Shown here one piece after another: positions 3,381 to 20,608 of a DNA stretch of 30,367 bases (its first letter is position 1; every line of letters starts with the position of its first letter). Position numbers and translations under genes: made by a program. The notes below the pieces were generated by a model that was given only the letters and a program-made list of their open reading frames with translations, did not search any database and was not told the DNA's origin. Location of the stretch: the IMG/VR virus record IMGVR_UViG_3300036885_000228, positions 1-30,367 of that record. One strand, given 5' to 3'. This DNA comes from a virus. Taxonomy: Duplodnaviria; Heunggongvirae; Uroviricota; Caudoviricetes.

Positions 3381-3900
3381 GTATAACAATTGTAAGAACT
3401 CTTTTAAGAAATGATGTAATGAATCATTGATTTTTTTACTAACGGTGGAATAAAAATATGTCAATAGATCAATCAAAAAACTATCAGGATTCTGAATTTC
3501 AGAAATCTTACAAAAAATTACGAAAAGGTGGAGATGGATCTGGTGGTGCAAGAGAAGGTGCTGGACGACCCGCAGGAAGTGGAGGAAAAGAAATGGGTGG
3601 AGGAAAAGAATTAGGAGGAAAGGAACCAGCAATAAGTAATAAGGTAGATAATAAGACTTATAATAGTATTCGTGATATTATTGAAGGACATTTTGCATCA
3701 GATGAAAAAGATTGGGATAAAGATACGAAAACAGCAATAACAAGATATGTTGCCAATCAAAAAGCAGGAATGTCAAATAGTAAGAATCTTGCAAATATTG
3801 GTGATAAATATGAATCAACGCTTTGGAGAAGAAATGGTGGAGAAAGTGGAATGTAATATATTAAGACCTCAAATATAAAGACTGTATAACAACTGTAAGA
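3381..3900 (+). repeat. Direct repeat pair GTATAACAA(T/C)TGTAAGA at 3381-3397 and 3884-3900
   Basis: 16/17 identical, with weaker similarity extending about 20 nt upstream; both intergenic, bracketing ORF 3458-3856. Confidence 0.7.
3458..3856 (+). CDS. KGG-motif protein 1, putative internal head/cargo protein
   Basis: EFQKSYKKLRK followed by GGDGSGGAREGAGRPAGS, shared with three other ORFs. Confidence 0.75.
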   Translation: MSIDQSKNYQDSEFQKSYKKLRKGGDGSGGAREGAGRPAGSGGKEMGGGKELGGKEPAISNKVDNKTYNSIRDIIEGHFASDEKDWDKDTKTAITRYVANQKAGMSNSKNLANIGDKYESTLWRRNGGESGM

Positions 3901-3929
3901 CTTACTTTATAAAATAACTTAACTCGTTA

Positions 3930-4274
3930 TTGATTTTTTGTTATATGATAGTAGAAGAAAAGACCTATAAATTCAAAAGGGAGAACTGGAAAGAGCTATT
4001 TAGAATAAATGTCTCATCTAAATTGGCAAGTAATGAAATAGAACTCCCAAGAGGATTTATCTATTATGAAACAGATATAGTGAGAGATATTGACGTTTAT
4101 TATTTATGGTTATTAATCCCTATAATGGTTCTGAAAGAAATTGCCACTAATATTTGGTACTTTATACCTAAAAAACTTTATCAGAATGGCCATTTAAGAC
4201 ATATAGAAGGAACTGCAACTAATTGGTTTTACTTTAAAGATATCAGTATAAGGAAAATACTTAAATCAAAATAA
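3930..4274 (+). CDS. Hypothetical protein (start may be ATG 3945)
   Basis: ORF track; central hydrophobic stretch. Confidence 0.6.
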   Translation: MIFCYMIVEEKTYKFKRENWKELFRINVSSKLASNEIELPRGFIYYETDIVRDIDVYYLWLLIPIMVLKEIATNIWYFIPKKLYQNGHLRHIEGTATNWFYFKDISIRKILKSK

Positions 4275-4347
4275 CACATCTTACCTAACGTTTAATAAAA
4301 TTTAGAAAACTGTCAGAATTGTTAACTAAGTTTAAGAAAACATTACT

Positions 4348-4839
4348 ATGGCTGGAAGAGGCGGATTTATGCCAGGAGGTGGACGACCAAAAGGCAGTAA
4401 ATCAAAGACGACAATTGAGAAAGAACATATAAGACAAGAGATACATCAAAGAGTTCTTAAAGGTTCTAAACGGATAATTAATAGCCAGTTCAATCTAGCA
4501 AATGGTTGTAGTTTTTTATATCGAATAGATAAAGATGAAAAAGGACATAATTCAAAACCTGTTCTAGTTAAAGACCAAGCAGAAATAGAGACTTATTTAT
4601 CTGGTGAATATGATGAGGAAGATACATATTACTTTATTACTACAGAGAAACCAGATATTCGAGCAATTCAAGATTTATGGGATAGAGTAATTGGTAAACC
4701 TCCCCAAGTTGTACAGGGAGATGAAGATGCACCGATTTACTCAATAGTCGTAAATAGATTTAATCCAAATGATAATAACGGAAAAACAAGCAATAAACCT
4801 GACGGAATTTCAGGACCGAGCAATATTCAGTCCAAGTAG
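4348..4839 (+). CDS. terS: Terminase small subunit
   Basis: N-terminal GGxxxGxGRPKGSK motif, AI..L.DR..GKP.Q motif, position directly before terL. Confidence 0.75.
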   Translation: MAGRGGFMPGGGRPKGSKSKTTIEKEHIRQEIHQRVLKGSKRIINSQFNLANGCSFLYRIDKDEKGHNSKPVLVKDQAEIETYLSGEYDEEDTYYFITTEKPDIRAIQDLWDRVIGKPPQVVQGDEDAPIYSIVVNRFNPNDNNGKTSNKPDGISGPSNIQSK

Positions 4840-6127
4840 ATTTGTTGCTATTATTTCTGGCATCCAAGGAGGGAAAACGTTTGCTGGTGCTATATGGTCT
4901 CGTTTACAATATGATGAATTTCAACAGGATGATGGATTAATTTGTGCACCAACATATAAAATATTATCACAATCAACATTACCGAAGTTCTTTGAACTAA
5001 ATCCAGATCTAAGAAAGTATTATAGAGAAGGAAGAGGGACAATTGAAGCTCCAGGTCGTGGTATCATATATATCCGATCAACTGAGAACCCAAACGTGAT
5101 TGAAGGTATGACATTACGTTGGATATGGGCAGATGAAGCAGGACAAATGAAACTCCAAGCTTGGATCAATATTCAAGGTCGTGTAAGTATATTGAAAGGC
5201 AAAGTATTCATAACATCAACACCATATAAGATAAACTGGCTTAGAACTGATTTCTTTGAAGCTTGGAAAAAGTGCAATTTAGACTATGATGTAGTTCAAT
5301 TTCGTTCAGTTGATAACCCTTATTTCCCTGCAGATGAATTTGAGAGAGTTAAAAATACGATGGATAGAAGGATATTCGAAAGACGTTATTGCGGATTATT
5401 CACAAAGATGGAAGGATTGGTGTATGAGGACTTTAACTATTCAGCAGCGTGTTCTGACAAATTGCCTAACAAGTTTGATACTGTGATAGGTGGAGTGGAT
5501 TGGGGATGGAATGCTCCTGCAGCAATAATTATAATTGGTATTCATGACAATACATATTATATTATAGACGAATTCTATCAAGAACATCAATCTACTGAAG
5601 ATCTAGCAAAAGTAGCATTAAGATTCAAAGACCAATATGGTGTTTCAATGTTCTACTGTGATAGTGCTGAACCAGATAGAATAGAAGTTTTCAAAAAGAC
5701 TGTAGAAGCAAAAGGATCAAATAAAGACATTTCCTTTGGTGTTGAAAAGATTCAAGGATTGATAAAAGAAGGGAAATTCATAGTTCATCCAAAATGCAAG
5801 TTCTTTCTTGAAGAAATAGAAGCATATCATTATCCTGAACAGAAAGAGAATAAAGCAGAGAAAGAGAATCCAGAAAAAGTAGATGATCATGCAATGGATG
5901 CAATGAGATATGCAATAGTTTCTTATTTGACACAAAACAAGATAATGTTTGTGCAACTTGAGGGAGATCGAAAGTATTTCAATCCAACACTAAATCGAGA
6001 ACCTTTACCTGCAATACCAGTTGCTAATGAGAATTTATCTGAGAAAGAAAGAGTAGAACAAATACGCAAACTCGATAGAGAGATAATTATTGAGGAAGAA
6101 CGTAAAAGATTTAATTCAGGGTATTAA
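4769..6127 (+). CDS. terL: Terminase large subunit (PBSX-like)
   Basis: Walker A SGIQGGKT, Walker B WIWADEA, ITSTP motif, RNase H-like GVDWGWNAP and DDHAMDAMRY. Confidence 0.95.
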   Translation: MIITEKQAINLTEFQDRAIFSPSRFVAIISGIQGGKTFAGAIWSRLQYDEFQQDDGLICAPTYKILSQSTLPKFFELNPDLRKYYREGRGTIEAPGRGIIYIRSTENPNVIEGMTLRWIWADEAGQMKLQAWINIQGRVSILKGKVFITSTPYKINWLRTDFFEAWKKCNLDYDVVQFRSVDNPYFPADEFERVKNTMDRRIFERRYCGLFTKMEGLVYEDFNYSAACSDKLPNKFDTVIGGVDWGWNAPAAIIIIGIHDNTYYIIDEFYQEHQSTEDLAKVALRFKDQYGVSMFYCDSAEPDRIEVFKKTVEAKGSNKDISFGVEKIQGLIKEGKFIVHPKCKFFLEEIEAYHYPEQKENKAEKENPEKVDDHAMDAMRYAIVSYLTQNKIMFVQLEGDRKYFNPTLNREPLPAIPVANENLSEKERVEQIRKLDREIIIEEERKRFNSGY

Positions 6128-6131
6128 AAAT

Positions 6132-6278
6132 ATGGCAAAATTAGGTTCAAAATTCTCAAAGGAATTATACCCTAATAGAGGAATGCGAAATAAAAAACAC
6201 TCGAAAGAAACTATAGAATTGAAATTTAAATGCAAAGATGGAGATAATACAATGGGAATCGGATTAGTAATTCTATGA
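6132..6278 (+). pseudogene. Remnant of a NUMOD3-type homing endonuclease
   Basis: GMRNKKHSKETIE NUMOD3-like motif in a 48-aa ORF with no nuclease domain; its TGA overlaps the FkbM ATG. Confidence 0.55.
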
Positions 6279-6901
6279 GTGAAATAAATACACTATATAA
6301 TAAGCTCTATAGAAAATTAGTATTTGACATTGGTTCGAATGTTGGAGACATGACAAAGAAATATTTGGACTTAGGAGCGGATATAGTTGTAGCAGTAGAA
6401 CCACAATTAGAATGCTTTGACAGCCCAAACTATAGTGAAGCAATTTGCGTAAATAAAGCAATATCAAATATATCAGGACAAAAGATAACGTTCTATCGGA
6501 ATAATCGTTCAGCAATATCTTCATGTTCTAATAGATGGTTAGAAGGCAGATTTAAAGGACAACAATGGAAAGAGGAAGAAGTAGAAACAATTACATTAGA
6601 TGATTTAATCAAGCAATATGGAGTTCCTTATTTTATCAAAATAGATGTTGAAGGATATGAGAGGATGGCATTAGAAGGTCTATCACAAAAAGTAGAATAT
6701 CTATCAATTGAATATACTGAAGAGTTAAAAGATGAAACTCTTAAGTGCATTGAAATGCTAGAAAAACTAGGATATGAGAAATGTACGATTATAGATGAAT
6801 ATCACAATAGGCCAATTAAAGATTTAGATAATATAGAACAAGTAAAAGAGTACCTAAACATATTAGACTACTTAGATTGGGGAACACTTTTATTTTACTA
6901 A
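6275..6901 (+). CDS. FkbM-family SAM-dependent methyltransferase
   Basis: VFDIGSNVG, AVEPQ, TITLDDL, IKIDVEGYE motifs. Confidence 0.9.
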   Translation: MSEINTLYNKLYRKLVFDIGSNVGDMTKKYLDLGADIVVAVEPQLECFDSPNYSEAICVNKAISNISGQKITFYRNNRSAISSCSNRWLEGRFKGQQWKEEEVETITLDDLIKQYGVPYFIKIDVEGYERMALEGLSQKVEYLSIEYTEELKDETLKCIEMLEKLGYEKCTIIDEYHNRPIKDLDNIEQVKEYLNILDYLDWGTLLFY

Positions 6902-6904
6902 ATT

Positions 6905-7504
6905 ATGTCAAGAAATACTTTAAGTATTATCACATCATGTTCAAGGCCAGAAGCAATCTTTGATGTTTATGAGTCAGTGAAAGGATCAGTTAAAAAACTT
7001 GAAGATAGAACTTATAATATTTACTGGTACATAATTTACGACGGTGAAAAAGTAAAAGAAGCAAATAAAAGGAACTTTACAGATGAAGATGCTTGGATTA
7101 TTGAAGGTTCTACAAGTGAAGTTAGTAAAGGATATAAGCAACGGAATTTTGCTCTTGACATGATTAAAGATGGATGGGTATGTTTCTTAGATGATGACAA
7201 TATAATGCATCCAAATTTTTACACTGAAATATCTAAGCATTTAGATGAAGACTTAAATGGGATTGTAATTGATCAGATTTTCAAATTTGGTAATAATCGA
7301 TTAGTTGCAAGACTAGAGAATATGAGAGTTTGTAATATTGATATTGCCCAATACATTCTGAGACGTGAATATATTGGGGATAAACGATTCGACATTGAAT
7401 ATTGTGCTGATGGACATTTCATTGAAGACTTATATCGAGCAAATCCAAAAAAGTTTCTATTTATCAATCAACCACTTTGCTATTATAATTATTTAAAATC
7501 ATGA
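6905..7504 (+). CDS. GT-A fold glycosyltransferase (GT2-like)
   Basis: IITSCSRP start, RNFALD, WVCFLDDDN (DxD), ADGHF. Confidence 0.85.
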   Translation: MSRNTLSIITSCSRPEAIFDVYESVKGSVKKLEDRTYNIYWYIIYDGEKVKEANKRNFTDEDAWIIEGSTSEVSKGYKQRNFALDMIKDGWVCFLDDDNIMHPNFYTEISKHLDEDLNGIVIDQIFKFGNNRLVARLENMRVCNIDIAQYILRREYIGDKRFDIEYCADGHFIEDLYRANPKKFLFINQPLCYYNYLKS

Positions 7505-7800
7505 ATGGAGTATTTCATGAAGGACAACCAACAAATCAGATTCCAGTATTATGTAGAGGAAAAGCACAAGGAAGTAATGAATGGCAATATGGTGATTTAA
7601 GTTTTTCAGTTACTCCAACAATTACTAGAAAAGATGCAAGTTTCTGGTTTAAATATTGGTATGTTATAAGTAATCAAATTGAGCCAAATTACACAGTAAG
7701 TTCTTTTGTTGCTCCAGATTCAATACAACTACAACTTTGCAGATTAGATGAAAAGAAAGATCTATTTGCAAATTTATTTAATATAAGAAAATCTAATTAA
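7501..7800 (+). CDS. Hypothetical protein
   Basis: ATGA-coupled to the upstream gene. Confidence 0.7.
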   Translation: MNGVFHEGQPTNQIPVLCRGKAQGSNEWQYGDLSFSVTPTITRKDASFWFKYWYVISNQIEPNYTVSSFVAPDSIQLQLCRLDEKKDLFANLFNIRKSN

Positions 7801-7816
7801 CTAACATACAACTTAT

Positions 7817-8059
7817 ATGAGCGGTGGTGCATATAAAAAATGTGATTGTTGTTCAAGGTTATTTCCAGAAGATGAATTGGAGACAGTAGTTATCAAAATT
7901 AAGAAATGCAAGACATGCAATCCTAATATTGATAGCATGATTCAGACTCGACCAGAATTAAAATCCCTTGGTGCTCCAGTAAGGAGACCTGCAAGTATTG
8001 CCGAGGTGTCAATGAAACCACCTTCTCCAGACGATGAAGGAGTTCCTCTTAAGAAATAA
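7817..8059 (+). CDS. Small Cys-rich (putative Zn-binding) protein
   Basis: CDCC...CKTC. Confidence 0.65.
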   Translation: MSGGAYKKCDCCSRLFPEDELETVVIKIKKCKTCNPNIDSMIQTRPELKSLGAPVRRPASIAEVSMKPPSPDDEGVPLKK

Positions 8060-8069
8060 TTTTAATAAC

Positions 8070-8288
8070 ATGAAAACACAAGTAACAATACAATTCATAA
8101 TCGATTGTGGAGATACAGAAGCAACAGGATTTCAAGCTCAAAAGATCTTTACAAAAATGCTAAACGAGTTCCTTAATAATAGTTTTGATGTAGATATAGT
8201 TGATACCGATACTAGTGTTTCAGGTAAACACATCTTAATTCTTAACTCTAAAAAAGATGTTCAACCAAACAGTGAAGGGGTTAAGTAA
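8070..8288 (+). CDS. Hypothetical protein (likely start ATG 8070)
   Basis: ORF 8034-8288; ATG 8070 avoids overlap with the upstream gene. Confidence 0.6.
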   Translation: MKTQVTIQFIIDCGDTEATGFQAQKIFTKMLNEFLNNSFDVDIVDTDTSVSGKHILILNSKKDVQPNSEGVK

Positions 8289-8724: not shown

Positions 8725-8755
8725 TTAAAGATATTATTAAAATAAATAAAACATT

Positions 8756-9178: not shown

Positions 9179-9194
9179 TAGGTGGAATATAAAT

Positions 9195-9752
9195 ATGTCA
9201 ACAATATTTTTAAATGAAAAGGAATCTTCTTTTGCTAAAGCATACAAAGAAAGTCTTTCTTCTGAGATAACAAAAGGTGGTCCAGGAAGTGGTGGAGCAA
9301 GGGAAGGAGCAGGTAGACCTTCTGGAAGTACCAGTGAGAATGGAGGGGGAAATCACGGTATGAGAGATGAAGAGATTGAAGATAAGTATGATAGGATGAA
9401 TTCTTCAGAACAGAGAGAATATGATAGATTAAATAATAGTGATAATCCTTCAGAACAAATACAGGCACAATCAATGATTGAAAATGTAGAAGATGAAGTT
9501 CCGAGTTGGGCAGAAGATGCAGATGAAGAGGAGGTTGAAGTAGAATTATTATCTAGTGGTCAAAGTGTACCGGTAAATATTACTGAGTCAATGAGAGAAG
9601 CATTTGGTGATTCAAGAAGTGCAAATGAAGCAGTTAATAGATTTTTAGATGACCCAAGTAATGCTAAATGGTTCGATGACAAATATAGTGGAAATGAATT
9701 TGATCTAAAACATGATATTGAAAACTTAGTTAATCCACGTACTAGAAGATAA
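9195..9752 (+). CDS. KGG-motif protein 2 with acidic body, putative internal head/cargo protein
   Basis: SFAKAYKESLSSEITK followed by GGPGSGGAREGAGRPSGS; D/E-rich remainder. Confidence 0.75.
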   Translation: MSTIFLNEKESSFAKAYKESLSSEITKGGPGSGGAREGAGRPSGSTSENGGGNHGMRDEEIEDKYDRMNSSEQREYDRLNNSDNPSEQIQAQSMIENVEDEVPSWAEDADEEEVEVELLSSGQSVPVNITESMREAFGDSRSANEAVNRFLDDPSNAKWFDDKYSGNEFDLKHDIENLVNPRTRR

Positions 9753-9762
9753 AGAATAATGT

Positions 9763-9945: not shown

Positions 9946-9946
9946 T

Positions 9947-10188: not shown

Positions 10189-13100
10189 ATGGAAGATGTA
10201 GAAAAATTTATAATAACAAAACAATCCGAGGGAGTTGTTGACACGATGAAAAATGCTTCGGTCAATATTAAAAAAGCAATCTCTGATAGAGGAGAACCCC
10301 GTGCTTTAGTTCTTGACCCGGGAAAACTTTTTTATCGTACAACCGAGAAGGGAATTCGTAAACCTACTAGAATTACATTCCAGACTCTTAGGAGAATGTC
10401 AAAGGCAGTTCCAGTTGCTCGTTTATGCATTAACACTCTTAAGCATAAAGTCACACAAACTCCTTGGTCAATTAAACCAAAGAAGGGAGAAAAACAGGCA
10501 GATAAAGAACATAGTCGATTAGTTGAAGAGTTATTGACTAATCCAAATCGAAACCGTGAAACATTTAGAACTTTTCTTGATAAAGTTGTAGAGGACTTAT
10601 TAGTATTAGATGCTGGGTGTTTTGAGAAAGTAAAAAATAAAGGAGGAGAACCATGTGAGTTATATTACGTCGATGGGTCGACGATCAAACCGATGTATGA
10701 TATTCATGGAATATTGGGAGAACCGGCATATGTACAATTCATGCCAATGAACTCCGCAAATATACCTGATGCCGAATGGGATTATGATGAGTTCGTTTAT
10801 ATGATGCAAAATCCCCAAGCAGATATTCAGAACTTTGGGTATGGTTTATCTCCACTTGAAGGAGTGATAATGGTTGCCACGAATGCATTAAATGCAGATA
10901 ATTACATGGGACAATTCTTTGATGTTGGTACTCTCCCGCCGAAACTTATAAATTTAGGAAAAGATGTCTCACCAAGTGAAGTAGAATTATTTAGAGCAAT
11001 ATGGAAATCTGAAATAGAAGGAAAGCCCTGGAAAACTGCTATTACTGGAGGTAGTGAAAAAATGGAAGTTATCGACATGGGAAATGGCAAACCTGCAGAT
11101 ATGCAATTTGAGAATTACCAGACCTGGTTGATGAAACTAATGTGTGCCGCTTATGAGATAAGTCCTCAAGATATTGGAATGACTGCAGAAATGGGATTGA
11201 ATAGAGCATTAGGAGAAGTCCAGCAAAATATTTCAAACAATAAAGGATATCGTACAATATTAAATGTATTGAAAGAAACAATAAACATGCAAATTGTGCA
11301 TGAATGGTTTGACTTTAATGATGTTGAATTTGATTGGGTGGGATTAGACAATATTGATCAACTTAATGCAGCAAATATTTTTAATATCGAAAGTAAATGT
11401 GGTGCAACTTCAATCAATGAATATAGAATATCAAAAGGATTAGAACCAATTAAAGGAGGAATTAGTCCTTTCATTATAACTGGTACTGGACAAATTTCAA
11501 TTGATTCAACACCTCTTGATGATATTGATGAAACCGAAGTTATTGCAGAAGAAGAAAATGTAGAAGCACCAGTTGCTGAAGAAGGAGAACAAATTGATGA
11601 AACAAAAGACACATCAAAACCTAAAGTTGAAGAGAAACATATACATAAGGAAGGTGAAAGATCTACACAATTAGATGATATCCGAGGATTAAGAAGTGAG
11701 ATAGGATATGTGACACCAAGAAGTATGGATGATTCAAGTGATTCTGAAACAACTTCAAAATCCTGGGTTGAAAAGAAAGTTCATACTCCTGATGATTATA
11801 TTTGCTGGGTTGATGACAGAGGATTTGGTCAACCATTTATTTTTACTGATAAGTTTGGAAAGAATGGATATGTAATCAAACCTCCAGTTGCAGTGAATAT
11901 CAATGCAATGGAGAAAGAAGTACAAATTACTCATGAAATGAATGATGCTGGATTGAATGTTTTACCAGTTGACATAATGACACCAAAAGATATAAATGAA
12001 TCATTGTTTCCATCTATAAAGATTAAACAAGAATTTGAGAATTATCAATTGATGACTCCCGAATATGATAGTAAGAAATGGGAAGCTAAATTTGGACATT
12101 CAAGAGTTTACGACAAATATAGTGTAATGCAATACATCAAAGGAAGGATATTGAATGATTCTCTACAATTAGAAGACATGAAGAGAGTTCCTGATGAATA
12201 TCAAAAAGCAATTTTAGATTTAGTTGCATTGTGGAAATATGAGAAAGAAAAAGGAATGGGAGATAGAAGAGCAAATCAATATATCATAACTCCCGATAAG
12301 AGAGCTTATGGTTTCGACTATCAGTTTGATGGTAATGAAAAAGCTTGGGCTAAATATGAGTTTAGTATTCCAAAAGCTTTAGCAGGAATCCCAAAACTCT
12401 ATGATGCTTTTATGCGGGAGTCTGGATTAGAAGTTGAGGACATGAAGAAATTTATTACCAAAGGTGGTGAAGGATCAGGAGGTGCACGTGAAGGAGCTGG
12501 TCGTCCTGCAGGTTCTGGAAGTAAAGAAACTTCAGAAGTATTAACTCAAATAAACGTAGGTGGAAAATTAGTCGATATCACTAGAGAAAATTATAATGAG
12601 CATCGCAATTTGTTAACAAGAAGAATGAGACAGGAATTAGATATTAAAACTGAATATGTTCCGCCTTGGAAGAAATCAATCGAAAAAGAAACTAAGATAT
12701 ATACTGAATCTGATGCTTCCAGAATTGGAGATGAATTAGGAGTAAATTGGGCACAAACAGATGTTAATGAATTTGTAACGGGATTGAATGAAGAACAGGA
12801 ACATAAAGACGTAATTGGTGATGACGAAAATTTATTAGGTAAAATTGTTCTTGCACACTTGAATGAAAAACCAGATTATTATACCAGATTAGAAGAGGCA
12901 ATGAGTAAATCTAAAAAAAAAGTAGATGGGAAGGATATTTTGCATAATGGTTGTGGGTGTGATGAATGTAAGAAAACAACTAGAATAAAAACAGAAAAAG
13001 CAATTAAGAACGATGAACATTGGCATGATTTCTGGCACAAGAAGGTAAGTGTTCCAGAAACTAAAATGATTGCACATTTAAAGACACAAAGCAAACAATT

Positions 13101-13860
13101 AAAATCAAATATGGCAAGAGTAATTAAAGACGAACTAGTTACTCGAAAAGCTATAGTTCCAGATAATGTTCTTACTGAATCTGCAAATGCGGTTCCTGAT
13201 TCTGATATTGCACTTAAATACACAAAGACAATGGATAAGATGTATAAGAGTGCATTTGAGATTGGTATAGATAATTTTCTCGTAAAAGCAGAAGACCAAT
13301 TAAAGCATAAAGGAATTACGAAAGAGATGCTTTATGAGATAGTTGGAAAGAAAAAAATATCAAAAGCAATTGAACGTTCAGGATTGTATGACAAATTAAA
13401 AGAACGAGGAACGAATTTAATCACAACAGTAGTTGGTAATAAGCAAAAGAAATTAGTTTCTTATATTCAGGATAGATCAGATAAAGGAGATCCAATGGAT
13501 GAGATATCTAGTGATGCTATGGAAAAATTTGCTCTCCCATTAGAAGATTATGAGGTTGAATGTATTGCAAGAACTGAAACTGCCTGGGCAGCAAATCAAG
13601 GATCATTAGAAGCAGGAAGTGAATTAGGTATTGATAATTTCGAAATAATTTTAGACCCTGATGTCTGTCCAGGTTGTCAAGATGCATATGAAAAATCAAA
13701 TGGAGAAGGAGATGTATTTACCAGTGAAGAATTATCTGACATTGGTGAACCTCCACTTCATCCAAATTGCAGATGTATAGTCGAACCATATATTGATGCA
13801 GACAATTTAGATGATTTAGCAAATAACATAATCGAACAGGCTGGTGGTGATCCTGAATAA
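10189..13860 (+). CDS. Portal protein fused to a kinase-like domain, KGG motif, DUF5661-like domain and MuF (Phage_Mu_F) head morphogenesis domain
   Basis: N-terminal HK97-type portal motifs (LYYVDGSTI, FGYGLSPLE, YEISPQDIG, SINEYR). C-terminal IARTET...CPGC...PPLHPNCRC is MuF. Middle domains are described under findings. Confidence 0.9.
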   Translation: MEDVEKFIITKQSEGVVDTMKNASVNIKKAISDRGEPRALVLDPGKLFYRTTEKGIRKPTRITFQTLRRMSKAVPVARLCINTLKHKVTQTPWSIKPKKGEKQADKEHSRLVEELLTNPNRNRETFRTFLDKVVEDLLVLDAGCFEKVKNKGGEPCELYYVDGSTIKPMYDIHGILGEPAYVQFMPMNSANIPDAEWDYDEFVYMMQNPQADIQNFGYGLSPLEGVIMVATNALNADNYMGQFFDVGTLPPKLINLGKDVSPSEVELFRAIWKSEIEGKPWKTAITGGSEKMEVIDMGNGKPADMQFENYQTWLMKLMCAAYEISPQDIGMTAEMGLNRALGEVQQNISNNKGYRTILNVLKETINMQIVHEWFDFNDVEFDWVGLDNIDQLNAANIFNIESKCGATSINEYRISKGLEPIKGGISPFIITGTGQISIDSTPLDDIDETEVIAEEENVEAPVAEEGEQIDETKDTSKPKVEEKHIHKEGERSTQLDDIRGLRSEIGYVTPRSMDDSSDSETTSKSWVEKKVHTPDDYICWVDDRGFGQPFIFTDKFGKNGYVIKPPVAVNINAMEKEVQITHEMNDAGLNVLPVDIMTPKDINESLFPSIKIKQEFENYQLMTPEYDSKKWEAKFGHSRVYDKYSVMQYIKGRILNDSLQLEDMKRVPDEYQKAILDLVALWKYEKEKGMGDRRANQYIITPDKRAYGFDYQFDGNEKAWAKYEFSIPKALAGIPKLYDAFMRESGLEVEDMKKFITKGGEGSGGAREGAGRPAGSGSKETSEVLTQINVGGKLVDITRENYNEHRNLLTRRMRQELDIKTEYVPPWKKSIEKETKIYTESDASRIGDELGVNWAQTDVNEFVTGLNEEQEHKDVIGDDENLLGKIVLAHLNEKPDYYTRLEEAMSKSKKKVDGKDILHNGCGCDECKKTTRIKTEKAIKNDEHWHDFWHKKVSVPETKMIAHLKTQSKQLKSNMARVIKDELVTRKAIVPDNVLTESANAVPDSDIALKYTKTMDKMYKSAFEIGIDNFLVKAEDQLKHKGITKEMLYEIVGKKKISKAIERSGLYDKLKERGTNLITTVVGNKQKKLVSYIQDRSDKGDPMDEISSDAMEKFALPLEDYEVECIARTETAWAANQGSLEAGSELGIDNFEIILDPDVCPGCQDAYEKSNGEGDVFTSEELSDIGEPPLHPNCRCIVEPYIDADNLDDLANNIIEQAGGDPE

Positions 13861-14129: not shown

Positions 14130-14178
14130 ATTTATTCATGTATGTCAATTTATAAAAAGACATACTAATCATAATAAT

Positions 14179-14403
14179 ATGAAAGTAATCACAAATTTTT
14201 TAGAAGGTAAGAAGACTTACATCGTGTGTGCTGCGACGATTATCATTGCAGTATGTCAATTCTATTTGAAAGACATCAATGGTACGTATGCTATTTCTGA
14301 AATTCTTGCAGCTTTAGCAGCCGCTGGAATTCGTAATGGTATTACTACTCAAATTGATGCTATCAATAGTCTCATTGCTATTAAGGGACCTGAAACGAAA
14401 TAA
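14179..14403 (+). CDS. Putative holin
   Basis: FLEGKKTYI motif followed by two hydrophobic helices and AAG.R.GI. Confidence 0.6.
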   Translation: MKVITNFLEGKKTYIVCAATIIIAVCQFYLKDINGTYAISEILAALAAAGIRNGITTQIDAINSLIAIKGPETK

Positions 14404-14430
14404 ATTAAATAGTCGGTGGATATAAATATT

Positions 14431-16509
14431 ATGGGAGAAAATGATTTCAAGAAATTTTTTAAGGAGACATTATCGACTGAATCGATAATTGAAAAAGCAA
14501 GTAAAGGAATTCAATTTGTCTTGGGTTTCCCTAAAGGTGGGGAAGGTTCTGAAGTTCAATCTGTTCTTTTCGATAAGGATAATTGGACAACAGCAACTGC
14601 TCAGGCTTGGTTAAAGTCTCATGATTTTTCTGGGACTGAAGTAGATGAAAAAGAAAATACATTGAGGTTTAGACAGAAAGATCCGGGAAAGTATACGAGA
14701 TTTGCAACTATTACTCCTGGAACTAAGAAGCAAAGAGATTTCATGGATTCAATTCAAGATGACAAGACTAAGAAAATGGATGGTAATGATACATACGAAG
14801 GAGGCAATGGTGGGAATGTTGATTCATTAGAACAACCACACAAACCATTAAAACCTGGTCAGAAAACACCTGCTACAAAAAAATCAATTATTGATTTATC
14901 TGAAGTTGAAGAGTTTAAGAAAACTGGTGGTGCTCCATTTCAATTCTTTATTGAAAAAGCAAGCATGTCAGAGAGTGGAGAAATGCAAACAGTGATTGTT
15001 AGAAAGATCGACGGTACTGTTTTGAGAAAACAACAGTTACCAGAACATTTATATGTTGAAGGATTAGCTACGACAACGAATGTCGATCATGATCAAGAAA
15101 GAATGTCTCCAGAAGCTATTCAAGCAATGGAGGCTGAAATAAATAAAAACGGTGTGCCTCTTATCTCTGAACATTCAAAGGAATGGGACGGTGTATTAGG
15201 CAAGGTGTTCGAGGCAAGAGTAGATGACAGAAATCAATTACACATAAAAGCTGAGTTAGATAAAGATATGTCTAAATCAGTTGATTTATACAACGCCCTC
15301 AAGAAAGGAGCTCAACTCGGTCTGTCCATCGCAGGCATAGTTAAGAAAGCTGGACTTGAAATGGTCGAAGGGGTTGGAAAGAAATGTAAGACATTTTATG
15401 ATGTCTTGCTAAAAGAAGTTAGCGTCACTGGCAGACCAAGCAATTTCGATACCTGGTTAGTTGCTAAAGGAATTGCTAAATCAAGAGAAAGTGGGTTATA
15501 CGACAAGTACCTTAATACAGATTCGTATCAAGAATATTTGAAGTCAAACCCTCGGCTTGATTGGCAGTATTCAATTGCAAAGTCTGTTCAAGATGATGTG
15601 CTAAATAAAAACATTTTAAATATGGATGTTATAAAGAAAGAAGAAACTTCAGCGGACGTTAAGCCTGCTGAAGAGAAAACAGAAGAAGTGAAGGAAGAAG
15701 TAAAAGTTGAAGATACTAAAGCTGAAGAAGTGAAAGTAGAGGAAGTCAAGACTGAAGAAGTTAAAGCTCCTGAAGCTGAAACTGAAAAAGCTGAAGTTGA
15801 AAAAGATACTGTTGATGCAGACATTGAAAAGTCAGTTAGTGAACAAGTTGCAAAAGCGAAAGCTGAAACAATTAGTTCTGCAGTTGACGAAGTTGTTAAA
15901 TCGAGAATCGGAGCTATTGCTGCTAAAGCAAAAGCAATTGCTATGAAGCATTTAGACAATGCTTTTAAAGCGATGGGTGGTGATGAATCCGAAACAACTT
16001 CAGACACTGAAGATACTGAAACTAAACCTGCTCCTGCAAAGAAAACAAAGAAAGCTATTGCTGACAGTTCTACTTCAGAAGACACTTCAACTGAAAAGGA
16101 AATGGATTCTGATACAGATTCATCTGAAACAGAAACAAAACCTGCAGCGAAGAAAACCCAAAAAGCTAAACCTGCTCCAAAGACTGAAGATACTGATACA
16201 ACTGAAACTGAAGATGATGAAAGTGAAACCACTTCAAAATCTTTTGTTCAAGCAATCGTATCTGGAGTTACTGCAAATCTTGAAAAGAAACAAATGAGAG
16301 TCATTGGAAATCTTCAAGAAGCAGTAGAAAAGATGATGCAAGTGCCAAATGCTCGCAAGGGTATCGCAATTGCAATGGAGAAGAAGTTTGTTGGTAATGC
16401 AATCGAAGAACAAGTTGAAGAGGGAAAAGTTGAAAAATCCGAAGGAGTTAAAAAGACTGAATCCTTCCAAGATTATTTCAAGACTAATTTTTCCTCAGAG
16501 AAAAAATAG
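14431..16509 (+). CDS. HK97-type prohead protease fused to an acidic scaffold region (start ATG 14431 or GTG 14416)
   Basis: LYVEGLATTTNVDHDQE, LISEHS (catalytic His), GLSIAG (catalytic Ser), EVSVTGRPSN; long E/K/T/D-rich repetitive C-terminal half. Confidence 0.9.
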   Translation: MGENDFKKFFKETLSTESIIEKASKGIQFVLGFPKGGEGSEVQSVLFDKDNWTTATAQAWLKSHDFSGTEVDEKENTLRFRQKDPGKYTRFATITPGTKKQRDFMDSIQDDKTKKMDGNDTYEGGNGGNVDSLEQPHKPLKPGQKTPATKKSIIDLSEVEEFKKTGGAPFQFFIEKASMSESGEMQTVIVRKIDGTVLRKQQLPEHLYVEGLATTTNVDHDQERMSPEAIQAMEAEINKNGVPLISEHSKEWDGVLGKVFEARVDDRNQLHIKAELDKDMSKSVDLYNALKKGAQLGLSIAGIVKKAGLEMVEGVGKKCKTFYDVLLKEVSVTGRPSNFDTWLVAKGIAKSRESGLYDKYLNTDSYQEYLKSNPRLDWQYSIAKSVQDDVLNKNILNMDVIKKEETSADVKPAEEKTEEVKEEVKVEDTKAEEVKVEEVKTEEVKAPEAETEKAEVEKDTVDADIEKSVSEQVAKAKAETISSAVDEVVKSRIGAIAAKAKAIAMKHLDNAFKAMGGDESETTSDTEDTETKPAPAKKTKKAIADSSTSEDTSTEKEMDSDTDSSETETKPAAKKTQKAKPAPKTEDTDTTETEDDESETTSKSFVQAIVSGVTANLEKKQMRVIGNLQEAVEKMMQVPNARKGIAIAMEKKFVGNAIEEQVEEGKVEKSEGVKKTESFQDYFKTNFSSEKK

Positions 16510-16840
16510 TTAGTAGTATATAGGAATATATGAATGTCACCTCTACTGTTTATAGTAAACAATCTGAGGTCAACAGACATATACTAGATATTGACAATAC
16601 AATAAATATATTGGGCGAGAACCTCCCAAACTGGATAGATAGAATTTCTATCAACGAAAGTAAAAGCCAAATTGGTAGTTCTTAAATAGTGATTCGTTGC
16701 TATATGTCAAAACTTTGATATGTAATAGGTCGACAAAGCAATGTAATGCCACGAAAGTGGATAAATTACGCAAATAGATAAAACGAGTTCTTTACAAATA
16801 ATCTTAATGATTTGTACTAAATCAAAAAGATTTAAAACAA

Positions 16841-19834
16841 ATGGATAAAGTTAATCAAGCATTGGATAGATTCGAAAAAGCAGTCGATATTTCTTTCGCG
16901 GGTGGAATTCCGAATAGCATTTTAGCTAGACAGGATTTGGAAGCCGCAATCGTGAAACTTACCTATCGTGAGACTCCTCTCAGAGACATTGTCACAAGAG
17001 TCAAAGGTGAAGGTAGAGCACATTTGTGGAACCAAAGAATCAAATTAGGTTCTAACCCTGCAGAACTTACAACTGCTATGTTCTATGCCGATGGAGGAAC
17101 TCCTACGTTTTCAGATCCAGTTTATGTTCAAAAGACGGCCGCATATAAATACCTTAAACAAATTCTGAGGCATATATTTGTGAAAATATATGAAAATTTG
17201 GCTATATCGGTGAAACTCTTACATTGAGACAATACCGAGGGAAGATTCTAAAAATATTTAGAGAACCCGTAGAGACTACACGCCAAACACTTTATGCTTG
17301 AGATCCTTTACAAATATTGACAAATATGTTATAATATACTATATGAATAAAACATTAATCTGTCAAATTTGTAATAAAAACTTTGTAGTTAGAGATGGTT
17401 CAACTGCTAAATTTTGTAGTTATCATTGTTATTGGATATCGAAAAAGGGACGTAAATGGGGAAGACCATTTATTAAAGGTGGAAAATCTTGGAATTCGGG
17501 GAAAACCGGTTTGCAAATTTCACCATTTAAAGGTTTAACCAAATACGATCACCCAAGTCTGATGTCAAATTCAATAAAAAATTCTGAAAAGACAAAACTT
17601 CAGTATTTAAGAACTGGCAAAGAACAATGGTTATTAGATCGGAAAAGGTTTACTAGAAAAGGAAAGAAAAATTCTGATAAACAAAAGAATGCAGCAAGAA
17701 TTGCAATTCATAAGACAATAGAAAGTGGTAGATTAAGACAAAAATATCATGATACAAATATTGAAGTTAAAGTTGCCAATATTCTAAAAGACTTAGGAAT
17801 ACAATTTGAAAAACAAAAAAGAATACCGAAGATTGTCACACCTGATTTATATATACCGATAATTGATACACATATTTTCTGTGATGGTGATCATTGGCAT
17901 TCATTAGCAAATGTAGTTAAGCGAGACTTATTTGTTAATTCAAAATTGACAGAACTACAAATTAAATTTATTAGATTCAAAGGTTCTTTAATTTTAAAAG
18001 AACCTGATAAAGTAAAAGATCTCATTTTAAAGTTGATGATATAGTCCGAACTCTATGGTGACATAGAGAAATAAATAGAAATATTTATTCGATTACATCA
18101 TGTAATTCGTAACATACTGGGAATTGCGGCAAATATTACTGGACCCATGATTGCGAGTGGACGTTCGTTCACAGATATAGAAGCAGAAGTTGCAGAGGCT
18201 AAACTTCGCCAGGTTATTCAGGGCGAGGAATGGGCCCTATTTCACGGTGACTCTGTAGTCGATCCTTTGCAATTTGATGGACTTGATACACAATTAGTTT
18301 CTAACGTCATCGACAAAAGCGGTGCTGCGTTGAACCTTGAAGATGTCTGGAAAGCTGTAAAGCTTATCAGATTACAAGGTGGACAACCGACACACGTCTT
18401 TTGTTCCTTCGGCGTTCAGAATCAATTGAACTCTTTGCTTATTGGTGATCTGAGATATATTGCTCAGCAAGGTACAGTCGTTACAATGGGATTGAATGCA
18501 AATAACATTCAAACTCCTGCTGGCGTCTTACCTTTGATTGGTGATTTCTTCATCAACCCGAGCTCTCCTTACCAATACAACCAAGCTGGTTCTTCTGGCC
18601 CTCAAGGCAACTCTGTTTCTAGCGTTTACGTGTTAAACGTTCCAGAAATAAATATGGTTAAATCAAATTGACCATACAAAACTTCGCTATATCGGGGAAA
18701 GCTAAATCTAGTATTCTTGCTAGACATGTCAATCCCGAGGCAACCTACACATTGTAGAGAGTCCGTAGAGACTACACGCGAAGAATAGAAATTTTCTATT
18801 ATGATATAGTCCGACCATACGGGAAACCGTATGAGCAAGATAGAAATACTCTTGCAATACCAAATGGTAGATTAACAATTTAGGATTTGATGCCAATCGG
18901 GCGCACAGAACTTGCGAAAGTCGCAGACACGGTTAGATTTTACATAAACGAATACACGTCTATGGCCGTAAACTTTTGCGGCATATGATTGTGAAATCAT
19001 ATTAAAAATTGAGCTATATCGGAAAAACTCCCAACTGAAATAAGTGGACAATTCCGAGGAAAGACTTATAAATTATAAGTATCCGTAGAGACTACACGCT
19101 CGATATCTAAAAATCATGAAATGTTTAAATTGTAAGATTGAAGAAGCAAAAAGAGGTTGTCAATTCTGTTCTAAGAGTTGTCGATATTCTTATTTTTCTG
19201 GTGATAGAAATCCAGCTAAAAGAAAGGATGTCAGACAAAAACTTAAAGAAAAAGCTAGAATTAGAGAATTGAATCCTGACTATTCTTTAAAATTATGGCA
19301 ACGAAATAAATACGGTTGGATAACTAAAACCTGTTTATTTTGCAATACTGAATTTTCGACTCGTAGATGCTATCATCGGAAGTTTTGTTCATTCAATTGT
19401 AGTAAATTATATCATGTAGGCAAGAATCATCATTTTCCATATATTGAACGAAAACCGGGTGCCTATGGATATAATTGGCCAGAACAAAAAAGAAAAGTAA
19501 AAGAAAGAGATAAAAATATTTGCCAAATCTGTGGAAAAAATCAATCACAAAATTTTGGACAAAATATGGATATTCATCATCTTATTCCTTTTCTACTTTT
19601 TACTTCATATGAACAGGCTAACAAGTTAGAAAATCTTACAAGTCTATGCATTGAATGTCATAGACGTCAGAAAAGAAAACTTTCATGGTTTAGAGATAAT
19701 GATATAGTCCGAACTGCATTGGAAGATGCAGAGATAGACAGAAATGTTCTATCACTACTAAAAAGTAGTTAACAAATCGAAAAGCTGAACCTTGGCAAGC
19801 AGTTATCAAGAACGTTAGCGATCCGAATTCCTAA
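16841..19834 (+). CDS. Major capsid protein, spliced: exons 16841-17155, 18120-18659, 18884-18969, 19780-19834 (996 nt, 331 aa); SU10/SPO1-like HK97 fold
   Basis: Joining exons at U|...G| junctions gives a continuous frame: AAYKYL|GIAANITG, EINMV|DLMPIGRTELAKVADTVRFYINEYTSMAV|KAEPWQAVIKNVSDPNS*. Position after the protease; QFDGL and LAK..D.VRF motifs typical of this capsid family. Confidence 0.88.
17307..17335 (+). promoter_or_regulatory. Sigma70-type promoter inside intron 1
   Basis: TTTACA-N17-TATAAT with TGt extended -10; ATG 17343 lies 7 nt downstream. Confidence 0.7.
17343..18044 (+). CDS. Intron-encoded homing endonuclease (Zn-finger + DUF559/Vsr-like, EDxHD-type)
   Basis: CQIC...FCSYHC; T.IE..V..IL..LGIQFE.Q...PDLYIP...FCDGDHWH...RD. 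Confidence 0.85.
   Translation: MNKTLICQICNKNFVVRDGSTAKFCSYHCYWISKKGRKWGRPFIKGGKSWNSGKTGLQISPFKGLTKYDHPSLMSNSIKNSEKTKLQYLRTGKEQWLLDRKRFTRKGKKNSDKQKNAARIAIHKTIESGRLRQKYHDTNIEVKVANILKDLGIQFEKQKRIPKIVTPDLYIPIIDTHIFCDGDHWHSLANVVKRDLFVNSKLTELQIKFIRFKGSLILKEPDKVKDLILKLMI
18660..18883 (+). ncRNA. Group I intron 2 (224 nt, ORF-less)
   Basis: P1 TGGTT|/GACCA, P10 TCAAATT/GATTTGA, P3 TTCGC/GCGAA, P7 GAGACTA (18768)/TAGTC (18807), terminal G. Confidence 0.92.
18884..18969 (+). CDS. Major capsid protein exon 3 (86 nt; absent from ORF track)
   Basis: DLMPIGRTELAKVADTVRFYINEYTSMA + GT, bounded by predicted splice sites. Confidence 0.85.
18970..19779 (+). mobile_element. Group I intron 3 (810 nt) with HNH endonuclease ORF
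   Basis: P1 GCCGT|/GCGGC, P10 CTTTT/AAAAG, P2 ATATGATT/AATCATAT, P3 TTGAGC/GCTCGA, P7 GAGACTA (19088)/TAGTC (19705), terminal G. Confidence 0.92.
19116..19772 (+). CDS. Intron-encoded HNH homing endonuclease with Zn fingers
   Basis: CQICG...DIHHLIPF...NKLENLTSLCIECH; N-terminal CxxC/FCSxxC repeats. Confidence 0.9.
   Translation: MKCLNCKIEEAKRGCQFCSKSCRYSYFSGDRNPAKRKDVRQKLKEKARIRELNPDYSLKLWQRNKYGWITKTCLFCNTEFSTRRCYHRKFCSFNCSKLYHVGKNHHFPYIERKPGAYGYNWPEQKRKVKERDKNICQICGKNQSQNFGQNMDIHHLIPFLLFTSYEQANKLENLTSLCIECHRRQKRKLSWFRDNDIVRTALEDAEIDRNVLSLLKSS
19780..19834 (+). CDS. Major capsid protein exon 4 (55 nt; absent from ORF track)
   Basis: A + KAEPWQAVIKNVSDPNS*; completes the phase-2 GTA codon. 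Confidence 0.85.
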
Positions 19835-19854
19835 TTGAATTCAAAATTCGTATA

Positions 19855-19883
19855 CTGTGCTTCATAATAAAAATGGAGCACAG
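19855..19883 (+). terminator. Hairpin after the capsid gene (terminator or mRNA-stabilising stem)
   Basis: CTGTGCTTCAT/ATGGAGCACAG 11-bp stem; no U-tract. Confidence 0.4.
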
Positions 19884-19893
19884 GAACGAGTAA

Positions 19894-20304
19894 ATGAATA
19901 TTAAAATAAGTATTGTATTAGTGATTATTTTCTCATTAATTGGAATTGCTGTATTACCTTATTTTTCAGAAGGAGATGAACAGATAGCTCAAACAATTGA
20001 TACAGTACAAAATTATTTACCGGTAAATCAGGCCTGGCCTACACAAGATGAAATCAAAACCTACATCACCCAAGAAGCTTTAAAACATGGGATAAGTCCG
20101 ATGGTAGCTTTACGTATTGCAAATTGTGAAAGTGGGTATGATAGATTAGTAAAGAATCAAAATTCTACAGCAACTGGAATTTACCAGTTCTTAGATTCTA
20201 CTTGGGAACATAATTGTACAGGAAATAGATTAGATCCATACGCAAACGTTGATTGCTTTATGGATAATTATATAAGACATAAAGACTGGTGGGTCTGCAA
20301 ATAA
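19894..20304 (+). CDS. Lysozyme-like/SLT lytic transglycosylase with N-terminal membrane anchor
   Basis: ALRIANCESG (catalytic Glu), NSTATGIYQF..STW; hydrophobic N-terminus. Confidence 0.8.
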   Translation: MNIKISIVLVIIFSLIGIAVLPYFSEGDEQIAQTIDTVQNYLPVNQAWPTQDEIKTYITQEALKHGISPMVALRIANCESGYDRLVKNQNSTATGIYQFLDSTWEHNCTGNRLDPYANVDCFMDNYIRHKDWWVCK

Positions 20305-20308
20305 AAAT

Positions 20309-20608
20309 ATGAATGAATTTCAGAAAAATTTTAAAGAGAATTTATCAATTGAGTCAATACTAAAAGGTGGACCAGGGTCTGGCGGTTCTAGAGAAGGTGC
20401 AGGTAGGCCTTCTGGTTCTAGTAATGAACCCAGTGGTAATGAAAAAGAAGCAATAAACACAACTCACGATTTACTCGGTCAAGGACATAGTGAAAACGTA
20501 ATATTAAATAAATTGATAATGTATTTTCCTGAAATATCCGAATATGATTTAGAAAATATAATGAATAATGTCAAATCTGGAAATTTAAAAAGGCAAGACA
20601 TGACATAA
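20309..20608 (+). CDS. KGG-motif protein 3, putative internal head/cargo protein
   Basis: EFQKNFKENLSIESILK followed by GGPGSGGSREGAGRPSGS. Confidence 0.75.
   Translation: MNEFQKNFKENLSIESILKGGPGSGGSREGAGRPSGSSNEPSGNEKEAINTTHDLLGQGHSENVILNKLIMYFPEISEYDLENIMNNVKSGNLKRQDMT

Follow-up and report, generated by a model that had tools for sequence, protein, structure and literature searches.

The window analyzed here is a stretch of 30,367 nt, positions 1 to 30,367 of a 94,367-bp virus record (IMGVR_UViG_3300036885_000228), and carries a phage head module. The features that bear on our argument are the following.

3458..3856, + strand: cargo candidate 1, 132 aa; leader at residues 11-23 (nt 3488-3526), motif including its Lys at nt 3524-3580
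4348..4398, + strand: N-terminal arm of the small terminase (TerS) candidate, ORF 4348-4839, beginning MAGRGGFMPGGGRPKGS
4769-6127: TerL, from a family search
9195..9752, + strand: cargo candidate 2, 185 aa; leader at residues 9-27 (nt 9219-9275), motif at nt 9273-9329
10189..13860, + strand: 1223-aa fusion; portal 76-413, putative kinase-like middle, motif 758-776, DUF5661 843-903, MuF-like 1119-1198
12460..12670, + strand: motif plus ~50 further residues in the 1223-aa fusion, a ~70-residue insertion at an inter-domain linker
14416..16509, + strand: prohead protease–scaffold fusion, 697 aa from a GTG; S78 domain at residues 223-346 (nt 15082-15453)
14437..14496, + strand: leader peptide at the protease N-terminus, ENDFKKFFKETLSTESIIEK (leader HMM, relatives)
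16456..16506, + strand: scaffold C-terminus with a leader-like peptide, TESFQDYFKTNFSSEKK (E = 0.0021 among the ends of 292 ORFs)
16841..18671, + strand: interrupted major capsid gene in two pieces, 16841-17227 and 18147-18671, with SU10_MCP on 18147-18671
20309..20608, + strand: cargo candidate 3, 99 aa; leader at residues 1-19 (nt 20309-20365), motif at nt 20363-20419

Cargo candidate 1 lies ~0.5 kb upstream of TerS and has no Pfam or PHROG family match. Cargo candidate 2, whose homologues (P0002 and P0003) retain leader, motif and body, is directly upstream of the portal gene, and cargo candidate 3 begins 5 nt past the gene for an SLT-domain protein. ORF 4348-4839 is a candidate TerS, assigned from its position before TerL and from its N-terminal arm. 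The MuF-like domain of the 1223-aa fusion scored 27.8 bits, just below the Pfam cut-off of 29.6, and several PHROG minor-head or head-morphogenesis families matched this region at 1e-9 to 1e-13; no toxin family was found within the fusion. Three related phages have orthologous fusions without the ~70-residue insertion that carries the motif. The protease–scaffold fusion, for which relatives point to the ATG at 14431 as the start, matched Peptidase_S78 with E = 2.9e-7 and 31.2 bits against a cut-off of 21 (first 361 residues scanned alone), and an acidic, helical scaffold-like tail follows the S78 domain. An intact orthologue of the interrupted major capsid gene, 332 aa in length, is present in a relative (L007:11950-12948). 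Among cultured phage records, the portal was best matched by Chryseobacterium phage MA9V-3 (27% identity), and tblastn against 50,697 such records matched neither the 99-aa protein nor a motif-rich polyprotein; none of the cultured phages in this collection has the motif.

Four proteins of the head module share the peptide K↓GGxGSGGxREGAGRPxGS, where the arrow marks the bond before GG. A degenerate DNA pattern of the motif matched at 3527-3570, 9276-9319, 12463-12506 and 20366-20409, all on the + strand, and in 0/100 dinucleotide shuffles, in agreement with the preliminary description of this locus. The matches fall in ORFs 3458-3856, 9195-9752, 10189-13860 (motif at residue 758) and 20309-20608, and the peptides, in order of position, are KGGDGSGGAREGAGRPAGS, KGGPGSGGAREGAGRPSGS, KGGEGSGGAREGAGRPAGS and KGGPGSGGSREGAGRPSGS, with Lys preceding GG in 4/4. 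A genome-wide scan, suggested in the same description, gave exactly four copies in the 94,367-bp record, all in the head module, and no fifth copy in the remaining 64 kb. Between any two copies, 8–10 of the 19 codons differ synonymously and 1–3 non-synonymously, the differences including TCN/AGY switches for Ser and AGR/CGN switches for Arg. Third-position identity among the four copies is 51%, and the DNA flanking them is unrelated. Because of this synonymous divergence, selection acts on the motif peptide and not on the DNA, as had been proposed. Judged against other phages, the motif belongs to a large GGxGSG...GRPG family, within which it is a rare sub-variant. A literature search with motif strings gave nothing relevant. 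We considered a connection with the ubiquitin-like cassette of this phage (K beside GG) but dropped it, having found no evidence.

The three small ORFs have related leaders (12–20 residues in cargo proteins) and unrelated bodies, the latter as first described and as BLASTP confirmed. The bodies matched no family or fold (Pfam and PHROG; ESM Atlas for two of them), and for this reason the earlier designation 'injected effectors' is unsupported for these three proteins.

To examine the leaders, which had been likened to both ends of the protease–scaffold protein, we used profile searches. With an HMM of eight cargo leaders and a 213,000-residue six-frame database, the best non-training matches were protease–scaffold N-termini, namely this phage's own (E = 0.0016) and those of two relatives (E = 0.0019 and 0.0032). 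An HMM of 14 N-terminal leaders was searched against the last 30 residues of all 292 ORFs, and five orthologous scaffold C-termini ranked 1–5 of 292 (E = 2.5e-4 to 0.04; next 0.24). The scaffold likeness is significant only in this test restricted to ORF ends; in the opposite direction, a profile of scaffold C-termini run on the complete six-frame database missed the leaders (E above 1). The match of the three leaders to the protease N-terminus is significant. Relatives L007–L011 lack the Gly-rich motif altogether, yet keep the leader peptide at both ends of the protease–scaffold protein, and at the protease N-terminus it is retained even where the following domain has been deleted or has a gene of its own. 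Since these relatives are without it, the motif is evidently dispensable for head assembly. The earlier proposal that the leader docks cargo gains from this to the extent that the leader matches a peptide of the protease–scaffold termini, kept where the motif is absent; docking on the capsid protein itself would be a further, conjectural step.

Contig L013 is, by HMM comparison, a second and independent case of a leader matching the scaffold of its own phage. Three proteins encoded between its portal–MuF and S78 protease genes share a different leader followed by a K↓GG motif, and the only non-self match of this leader's HMM was the scaffold-like protein that follows the protease (E = 3e-4, with the next match at 2.7). 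The portal–MuF protein of this contig (not P0024) has no motif. In L145, three proteins bear the same leader but just one of these also has the motif, so leader and Gly-rich arm are evidently separable. AlphaFold2 gave a mean pLDDT of 44 for the N-terminal 361 residues of the protease and 52 for the 185-aa protein, low values due to shallow alignments. With low confidence in each case, the leader was modeled as a helix and the motif as a coil; the leader is probably helical.

The start of TerS had also been said to resemble the motif, and this proved correct: MAGRGGFMPGGGRPKGS has 10/15 residues identical to the second half of the motif. Viral contigs and prophages encode terminase-like and ribbon-helix-helix-like proteins in which Met is followed at once by the motif pattern; of ten that were tested, three match Terminase_4, one of them above the Pfam cut-off. 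Species-representative genomes yielded mostly spurious frames in high-GC DNA, and the few real matches were of this after-Met type. Arms of this type lie within 3 residues of a Met in 17/47 instances and within 10 in 28/47, and some are internal. Because they are not always at the extreme N-terminus, exposure by cleavage is apparently not required for arm function. The cargo arm is 12–35 residues in, or internal, and would become N-terminal only after the predicted cut. In HK97, the N-terminal arm of the small terminase sits in the DNA minor groove (PMC11331095). The cargo arm has an A-G-R-P core, not R-G-R-P, is flanked by Gly, Ser, Ala and Glu, and has a net charge of about zero; any DNA binding by it would therefore be weak. 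The preliminary likening to an AT-hook fails on these grounds, as the R-G-R-P core and the basic flanks are both missing. Of the DNA tether proposed with it, what stands is the identity with a small-terminase arm, set against near neutrality and the absence of AT-hook features; a tether through the Gly-rich arm is no more than plausible.

For comparison, we took in hundreds of other phages. Elsewhere the motif follows short leaders on ADP-ribosyltransferase (E = 6e-11) and zeta toxin (E = 1e-30) proteins, and occurs at domain junctions after portal, MuF and S78_2 prohead-protease domains, with up to 8–11 copies per polyprotein. MuF polyproteins carry 2–8 copies each, between ART, ATLF-like, zeta and SprT-like domains. 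In the wider GGxGSGNxGHxGRPG family (202 instances at 114 viral loci), the residue before GG was identical in 89% of 209 within-locus pairs versus 19% after shuffling (0/2000 shuffles reached 89%), whereas P2 and P4–P10 agreed in only 8–26% of within-locus pairs. Between phages this residue varies (K, D, L, N, A). A genome-specific residue before GG, next to variable flanks, is the signature of a phage-specific protease cut. This is consistent with the cut after Lys suggested earlier, which we infer for the present phage. P3 was hydrophobic in 41/45 instances of the Cys variant and not consistently so in the Gly variant. Ten motif-bearing viral records gave no match to Prp, S78, S78_2 or S77, though the S77 search missed control genomes too.

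The best explanation of these data, and probably the right one, is that proteins carried within the phage head bear a tag of two parts. The first part would be the leader, seemingly copied from the peptide with which the phage's own prohead protease begins and its own scaffold ends. It would bring the tagged protein into the assembling prohead, either by binding the partner of the scaffold end or by joining the scaffold itself. The second part would be the invariant Gly-rich peptide; the S78 prohead protease most likely cleaves directly before its GG, after Lys in this phage. On the comparative data, cleavage would strip the leader from the three small proteins and divide the 1223-aa fusion into a portal/kinase-like half and a DUF5661–MuF half. 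The Gly-rich peptide would remain on the mature cargo. Its likeliest role, and the weakest step of the scheme, would be a weak, sequence-independent hold on packaged DNA, keeping cargo with the genome until ejection; we suggest this because many small terminases, and other small phage proteins of DNA-binding appearance, have the same peptide as their N-terminal arm. We lean toward this order of events, from docking through cleavage before GG to an arm retained on the cargo. More tentatively, many unrelated tailed phages may use the Gly-rich peptide as a portable 'ride with the DNA' module, whose carriers, released by the phage's head protease, would stay bound to the packaged DNA and exit the capsid together with it; we regard this as possible but doubtful.

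A narrower account would keep the cargo tag and make the Gly-rich peptide an extended cleavage recognition element or spacer with no later role. It would suit the position of the motif at polyprotein junctions, the constancy of P1 within genomes, the near-neutral cargo arm without an R-G-R core, and the low-confidence coil given by AlphaFold. Yet ~18 invariant primed-side residues are far above the needs of known prohead-protease sites, and the identical peptide follows Met on terminase-like proteins, where a cut is unnecessary. Moreover, the peptide stays the same across phages with differing P1 (K, D, L, N, A), which argues for a partner other than the protease. We consider this account rather unlikely.

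The roles of the two parts might instead be reversed, with the Gly-rich peptide docking to the portal, capsid interior or terminase, and the leader serving as a removable pro-peptide, so that cargo would fold or become active only inside the head. Leaders differ between phages while the Gly-rich peptide is invariant, and no leader is recognizable at polyprotein junctions, which would suit such a reversal. It is nonetheless improbable: leaders copy same-phage scaffold or protease peptides in two independent lineages, leader-only proteins exist beside leader-plus-motif ones, and relatives build heads without the motif.

Nor need the small proteins be cargo at all. They could be DNA-binding helpers of packaging or early control, with a terminase-type arm and a leader that acts as an uncleaved interaction helix. 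Counting against a cargo tag, ORF 3458-3856 is upstream of TerS and a motif protein of another phage likewise adjoins TerS, positions that a packaging role also fits; the arm type is also common on small DNA-binding-looking phage proteins. But this would leave unexplained the motif after portal, MuF and protease domains and before toxin domains, the leader match to protease and scaffold ends, and the genome-specific residue before GG, and we think it very improbable. Chance low-complexity similarity, for which a short, Gly-rich peptide is an obvious suspect, and a DNA-level repeat (a recombination or regulatory site) were rejected and have a negligible likelihood, given the shuffles, the peptide identity despite synonymous divergence and unrelated flanks, and the recurrence of the motif in unrelated phages.

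A two-part head-cargo tag would matter for several reasons. Phage-injected proteins, such as anti-defence enzymes, ADP-ribosyltransferases, toxin-like kinases and peptidases, are hard to recognize from sequence, and a tag readable in sequence would allow head cargo to be listed from metagenomes. Such a tag would also yield a testable rule for the substrate choice of prohead proteases, since different phages have different residues before GG, and foreign proteins could be loaded into capsids by means of it. For this phage, it predicts the three small proteins as head cargo and the division of the portal fusion into two products. If the 'ride with the DNA' idea were true, leader plus motif would be a general export signal for phage-delivered enzymes, by which injected effectors could be listed from metagenomes on sequence alone and which could be reused to bring foreign proteins into capsids.

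A loading-and-cutting tag of this kind for capsid-internal proteins was not found in the searchable literature; T4 has one of the closest known systems. A capsid targeting sequence (CTS) is all that the T4 internal proteins have in common, and it loads them into the scaffolding core (PMC3012670), and the statements on IPI-III and Alt in that source and in Mullaney and Black 1996, as cited in PMC12991175, have the CTS removed by the prohead protease. In both systems, a short N-terminal peptide is the sole feature common to otherwise unrelated head or head-module proteins. T4 cargo includes an ADP-ribosyltransferase, as in related phages here, and the leader in this phage is related by HMM to scaffold/protease core components, in the second lineage (L013) too. 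Unlike in T4, however, the protease is Peptidase_S78 and not of the gp21 type (S77). T4 cuts after Glu (L/I-x-E), whereas the residue at the predicted junction is Lys in 4/4 here and others elsewhere. The second invariant peptide, 18 Gly-rich residues after the putative cut, has no T4 counterpart, and the same junction also occurs inside portal-, MuF- and protease-fused polyproteins.

The capsid and scaffolding proteins of phage 80alpha share an N-terminal motif that is cleaved by host Prp (PMC5744158). There, as here, several head proteins have one short N-terminal sequence and a defined bond, which in our case would be the one before GG. Leaders of Cys-variant phages (MNLQ...[FY]A) resemble the 80alpha motif, a likeness limited to that variant; the leaders of the window have Lys as their last residue and lack an F↓A site (N-L-Q ... 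F↓A). Five Cys-variant phages encode no recognizable Prp; the Prp of 80alpha is a host protein.

Portal and MuF domains fused to enzymes are thought to be packaged and injected, and zincin-type peptidase domains have been proposed for their processing (Iyer et al. 2017, PMC5512222); the words 'glycine' and 'linker' are absent from the text of that paper. Several motif-bearing proteins are of this MuF-fused kind, and the 1223-aa fusion has a MuF-like domain. What differs here is that one defined peptide is present at every junction and that small free-standing proteins carry it as a tag as well.

The Hin-type G-R-P arm and the AT-hook are, like the N-terminal arm of HK97 TerS, flexible Gly/Arg/Pro-containing arms that lie in the DNA minor groove, that of AT-rich DNA in the case of the AT-hook. 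Terminase-type arms are close in that the full motif follows Met on Terminase_4-like proteins and a looser copy opens this phage's TerS, but the cargo version would be internal until cut, is nearly uncharged and is without the R-G-R-P core. In lambda, Mu and P2, finally, protease and scaffold genes are nested or fused, and a shared terminal peptide targets both products to the prohead. Here, in contrast, a single fusion protein has the peptide twice, once at either end, and extra proteins appear to have received copies of it.

Four copies of a Gly-rich 19-residue peptide, KGGxGSGGxREGAGRPxGS, are encoded in the window, whose genes, all reading on the + strand, form a packaging and head module. 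The source virus record is 94,367 bp long (∼32% G+C, completeness estimate 77%), and the window is its first 30 kb. Three of the copies lie in small ORFs termed here cargo candidates, in which a leader of 12–20 residues precedes the motif and a body follows it. The main features are:

3458–3856, + strand: first cargo candidate, motif at 3524–3580
4348–4839, + strand: small-terminase (TerS) candidate
4769–6127, + strand: TerL
9195–9752, + strand: second cargo candidate, motif at 9273–9329
10189–13860, + strand: portal fusion, 1223 aa, motif at 12460–12516
14416–16509, + strand: protease–scaffold fusion, 697 aa
16841–17227 and 18147–18671, + strand: pieces of an interrupted SU10-type capsid gene
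19894–20304, + strand: SLT-domain protein with a hydrophobic N-terminal segment
20309–20608, + strand: third cargo candidate, motif at 20363–20419

The SLT-domain gene ends 5 nt from the third cargo candidate. Residues 223–346 of the protease–scaffold fusion match Peptidase_S78 (E 2.9e-7, 31.2 bits versus a cut-off of 21), a match that appears only if residues 1–361 are scanned alone. Endonuclease-like ORFs lie between the capsid gene pieces (17298–18044) and after them (19116–19772), within the region 16841–19834. Among related phage loci, the capsid gene is intact (332 aa) in L007 and interrupted in L008, L009 and L010.

The preliminary description had reported four motif copies, and a degenerate pattern (GGxGSGGxREGAGRP) indeed found 4 sites in the window and 0 in 100 shuffles. 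No fifth copy was present in the other 64 kb of the record. Per pair of copies, 8–10 of the 19 codons differ synonymously and 1–3 non-synonymously, third-position identity is 51%, and the DNA flanking the copies is unrelated. These data place the constraint on the peptide rather than on the DNA, in line with the earlier proposal. Two further observations also held: the bodies behind the motif have no similarity to one another (nor any match to a Pfam, PHROG or Atlas family), and the TerS candidate starts with a copy of the motif, albeit a looser one. In the portal fusion, the motif and ∼50 residues of unknown fold make up a ∼70-residue insertion (12460–12670), located at the linker between a kinase-like region and DUF5661; this insertion is missing from the orthologous portal fusions of three relatives (L007, L008 and L009). 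In the protease N-terminal domain (14530–14550), the string FPK-GGEGSE repeats the Lys and first five residues of the motif. Relatives have FPK-GSGNSE at this position, so the string is probably a turn inside a folded domain rather than a fifth motif site.

The leaders had been described as aligning with both termini of the protease–scaffold protein, and a leader HMM scan of the genome and its relatives had been proposed. We built an HMM from eight cargo leaders, of which three belong to this phage and five to relatives in the databases, and ran it against the six translated frames of this genome and of five related loci (213,000 residues). The best non-training matches were the extreme N-termini of protease–scaffold proteins (E 0.0016 for this phage, 0.0019 and 0.0032 for relatives). 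A second HMM, of 14 N-terminal leaders, was compared with the C-terminal 30 residues of each of the 292 ORFs; five scaffold C-termini took ranks 1–5 (E 2.5e-4 to 0.04), with the next match at 0.24. The reverse test, scaffold C-termini versus leaders without restriction to ORF ends, gave no significance. Thus the N-terminal alignment stands, whereas the C-terminal one holds in the ORF-end test but not in the unrestricted reverse test, and the C-terminal likeness is real but weaker. The protease–scaffold ORF as listed starts at a GTG (14416–14433 region). Relatives open with MDNEFKK or MSEFQK, an indication that the true start is the ATG at 14431; from there, the leader peptide would occupy the extreme protease N-terminus.

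No Gly-rich motif was found within 10 kb of the protease in L007, L008 or L009. Yet the leader peptide is present at both protease–scaffold ends in all three, and in L009 and L008 it is retained though the next domain has been deleted or replaced. In two more distant relatives, L010 (8742–9836) and L011 (9446–9958), the equivalent of the N-terminal domain of the protease fusion is a gene of its own upstream of the protease, with the leader at its start. Because motif-free relatives keep the leader, this comparison of sequences marks it as an older peptide from the ends of the scaffold/protease system, of which this lineage placed copies on three additional proteins. The separate gene of L010 has a leader-like peptide at its end as well.

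A second, separate lineage gave a similar picture. A portal-MuF gene on contig L013 precedes genes for three proteins of 141, 398 and 190 aa, which in turn precede the gene for an S78 protease. All three intervening proteins have a common leader, unlike that of this phage, followed by Lys, GG and the rest of the motif. An HMM of this leader had one non-self match on the contig, the acidic and scaffold-like product of a gene that follows the protease gene (E 3e-4; next, 2.7). Together with the data from this phage, this indicates that the putative cargo leader mimics the scaffold of its own phage in two lineages.

A leader-plus-motif profile searched against 1.84 billion representative proteins matched just 29 at E ≤ 0.001, in three classes. 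The first comprises small proteins with the motif 12–35 residues from the start; the second, portal-MuF fusions and one S78_2 protease fusion, in which the motif lies where domains meet. In the third, MuF polyproteins, a Cys variant (GGPGSGCxGxxCGRP) occurs 2–8 times per protein between ART-PolyVal, ATLF-like, zeta-toxin and SprT-like domains. Scans of viral contigs placed an ADP-ribosyltransferase (E 6e-11) and a zeta toxin (E 1e-30) behind leader and motif. The motif also occurs ∼10–30 residues past XkdF-type protease domains, after portal C-termini and after the MuF C-terminal Cys motif.

In the Cys variant (L125–L150 and G001–G005), Cys replaces Gly7' and Ala12', positions counted from the start of GG; the pair may point to a tight loop or metal site. 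Five near-complete to complete (82–100%) phages of 117–131 kb (G001–G005) have 1–4 copies each, on one strand and mostly within a few kb, with a spread of up to ∼19 kb in G004. No S78, S78_2 or Prp protease was recognisable in these five, and across the ten motif-bearing phages searched besides the present one, no protease family could be identified. At locus L145 (reverse strand), the same 11-residue leader opens three neighbouring genes, one with the Cys-variant motif plus a zeta-toxin domain and two that lack the motif, which argues that leader and putative Gly-rich arm are separable parts. Short leaders such as MNLQTTISIFA and MNLETTITIFA, common to neighbours with and without the motif in L145, L128, L149 and L150, look like the motif at which Prp cleaves L27 and 80alpha head proteins.

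A much larger family, GG-x-GSGN-x-GH-x-GRPG-xx-GGS, includes the window motif as a rare sub-variant. A search with one strict DNA pattern retrieved at least 202 distinct instances in at least 114 viral loci, with up to 11 copies per locus among the matches listed. Across the 44 multi-copy loci among these matches, the residue before GG (P1) was the same in 89% of 209 within-locus pairs versus 19% after shuffling, a level reached by 0 of 2000 shuffles. At P2 and P4–P10, just 8–26% of within-locus pairs agreed among the matches listed; hence simple paralogy does not account for the flanks, and each genome has one fixed position. Its identity is K, D, L, N, A or another residue, depending on the phage. 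Of 45 Cys-variant instances, 41 have a hydrophobic residue at P3. The constancy of P1 within a genome is our main reason for inferring cleavage immediately in front of GG, which in this phage would be after Lys. The genome-specific residue would be read by the protease that each phage encodes.

Loosened patterns bear on what the Gly-rich peptide may do once freed. They found the second half of the motif, and often all of it, immediately behind the Met of many small proteins from phages and prophages; Terminase_4 small terminases are among them, as are proteins whose continuation is ribbon-helix-helix-like. As an N-terminal arm, the form G-[RST]-GG-x-R-x-GAGRP is common on such proteins (L016–L124, L189, L208, L211 and L223). 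In the HK97 small terminase–DNA structure, the N-terminal arm sits in the minor groove (PMC11331095), which makes a DNA-contacting arm a reasonable reading. On freed cargo, the arm would contact DNA as a tether, and DNA as universal partner would explain why the same peptide recurs across phages with different cut-site residues. But the cargo version has A-G-R-P at its core, not R-G-R-P, between flanks of Gly, Ser and acidic residues; its net charge is about zero, and this arm type is not in every case strictly N-terminal. We regard the tether step as tentative, possible rather than probable.

Cargo loading, cutting and ejection are the steps we infer for this system, with the leader binding, as its presumed partner, capsid protein or scaffold. 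Among known systems, the T4 capsid targeting sequence comes closest; it is described as the sole element conserved across varied internal proteins that are loaded into the scaffolding core (PMC3012670). A second parallel to the leader is found in 80alpha, whose capsid and scaffolding proteins have a common N-terminal motif cut by host Prp (PMC5744158). MuF-fused and polyvalent proteins were already known (PMC5512222), from a text containing neither 'glycine' nor 'linker', and the motif strings had no relevant occurrence in the searchable literature. Unlike the known systems, this phage has a protease of the S78 family, Lys as the presumed cut-site residue and an invariant Gly-rich peptide, and the same junction is reused inside portal, MuF and protease fusions.
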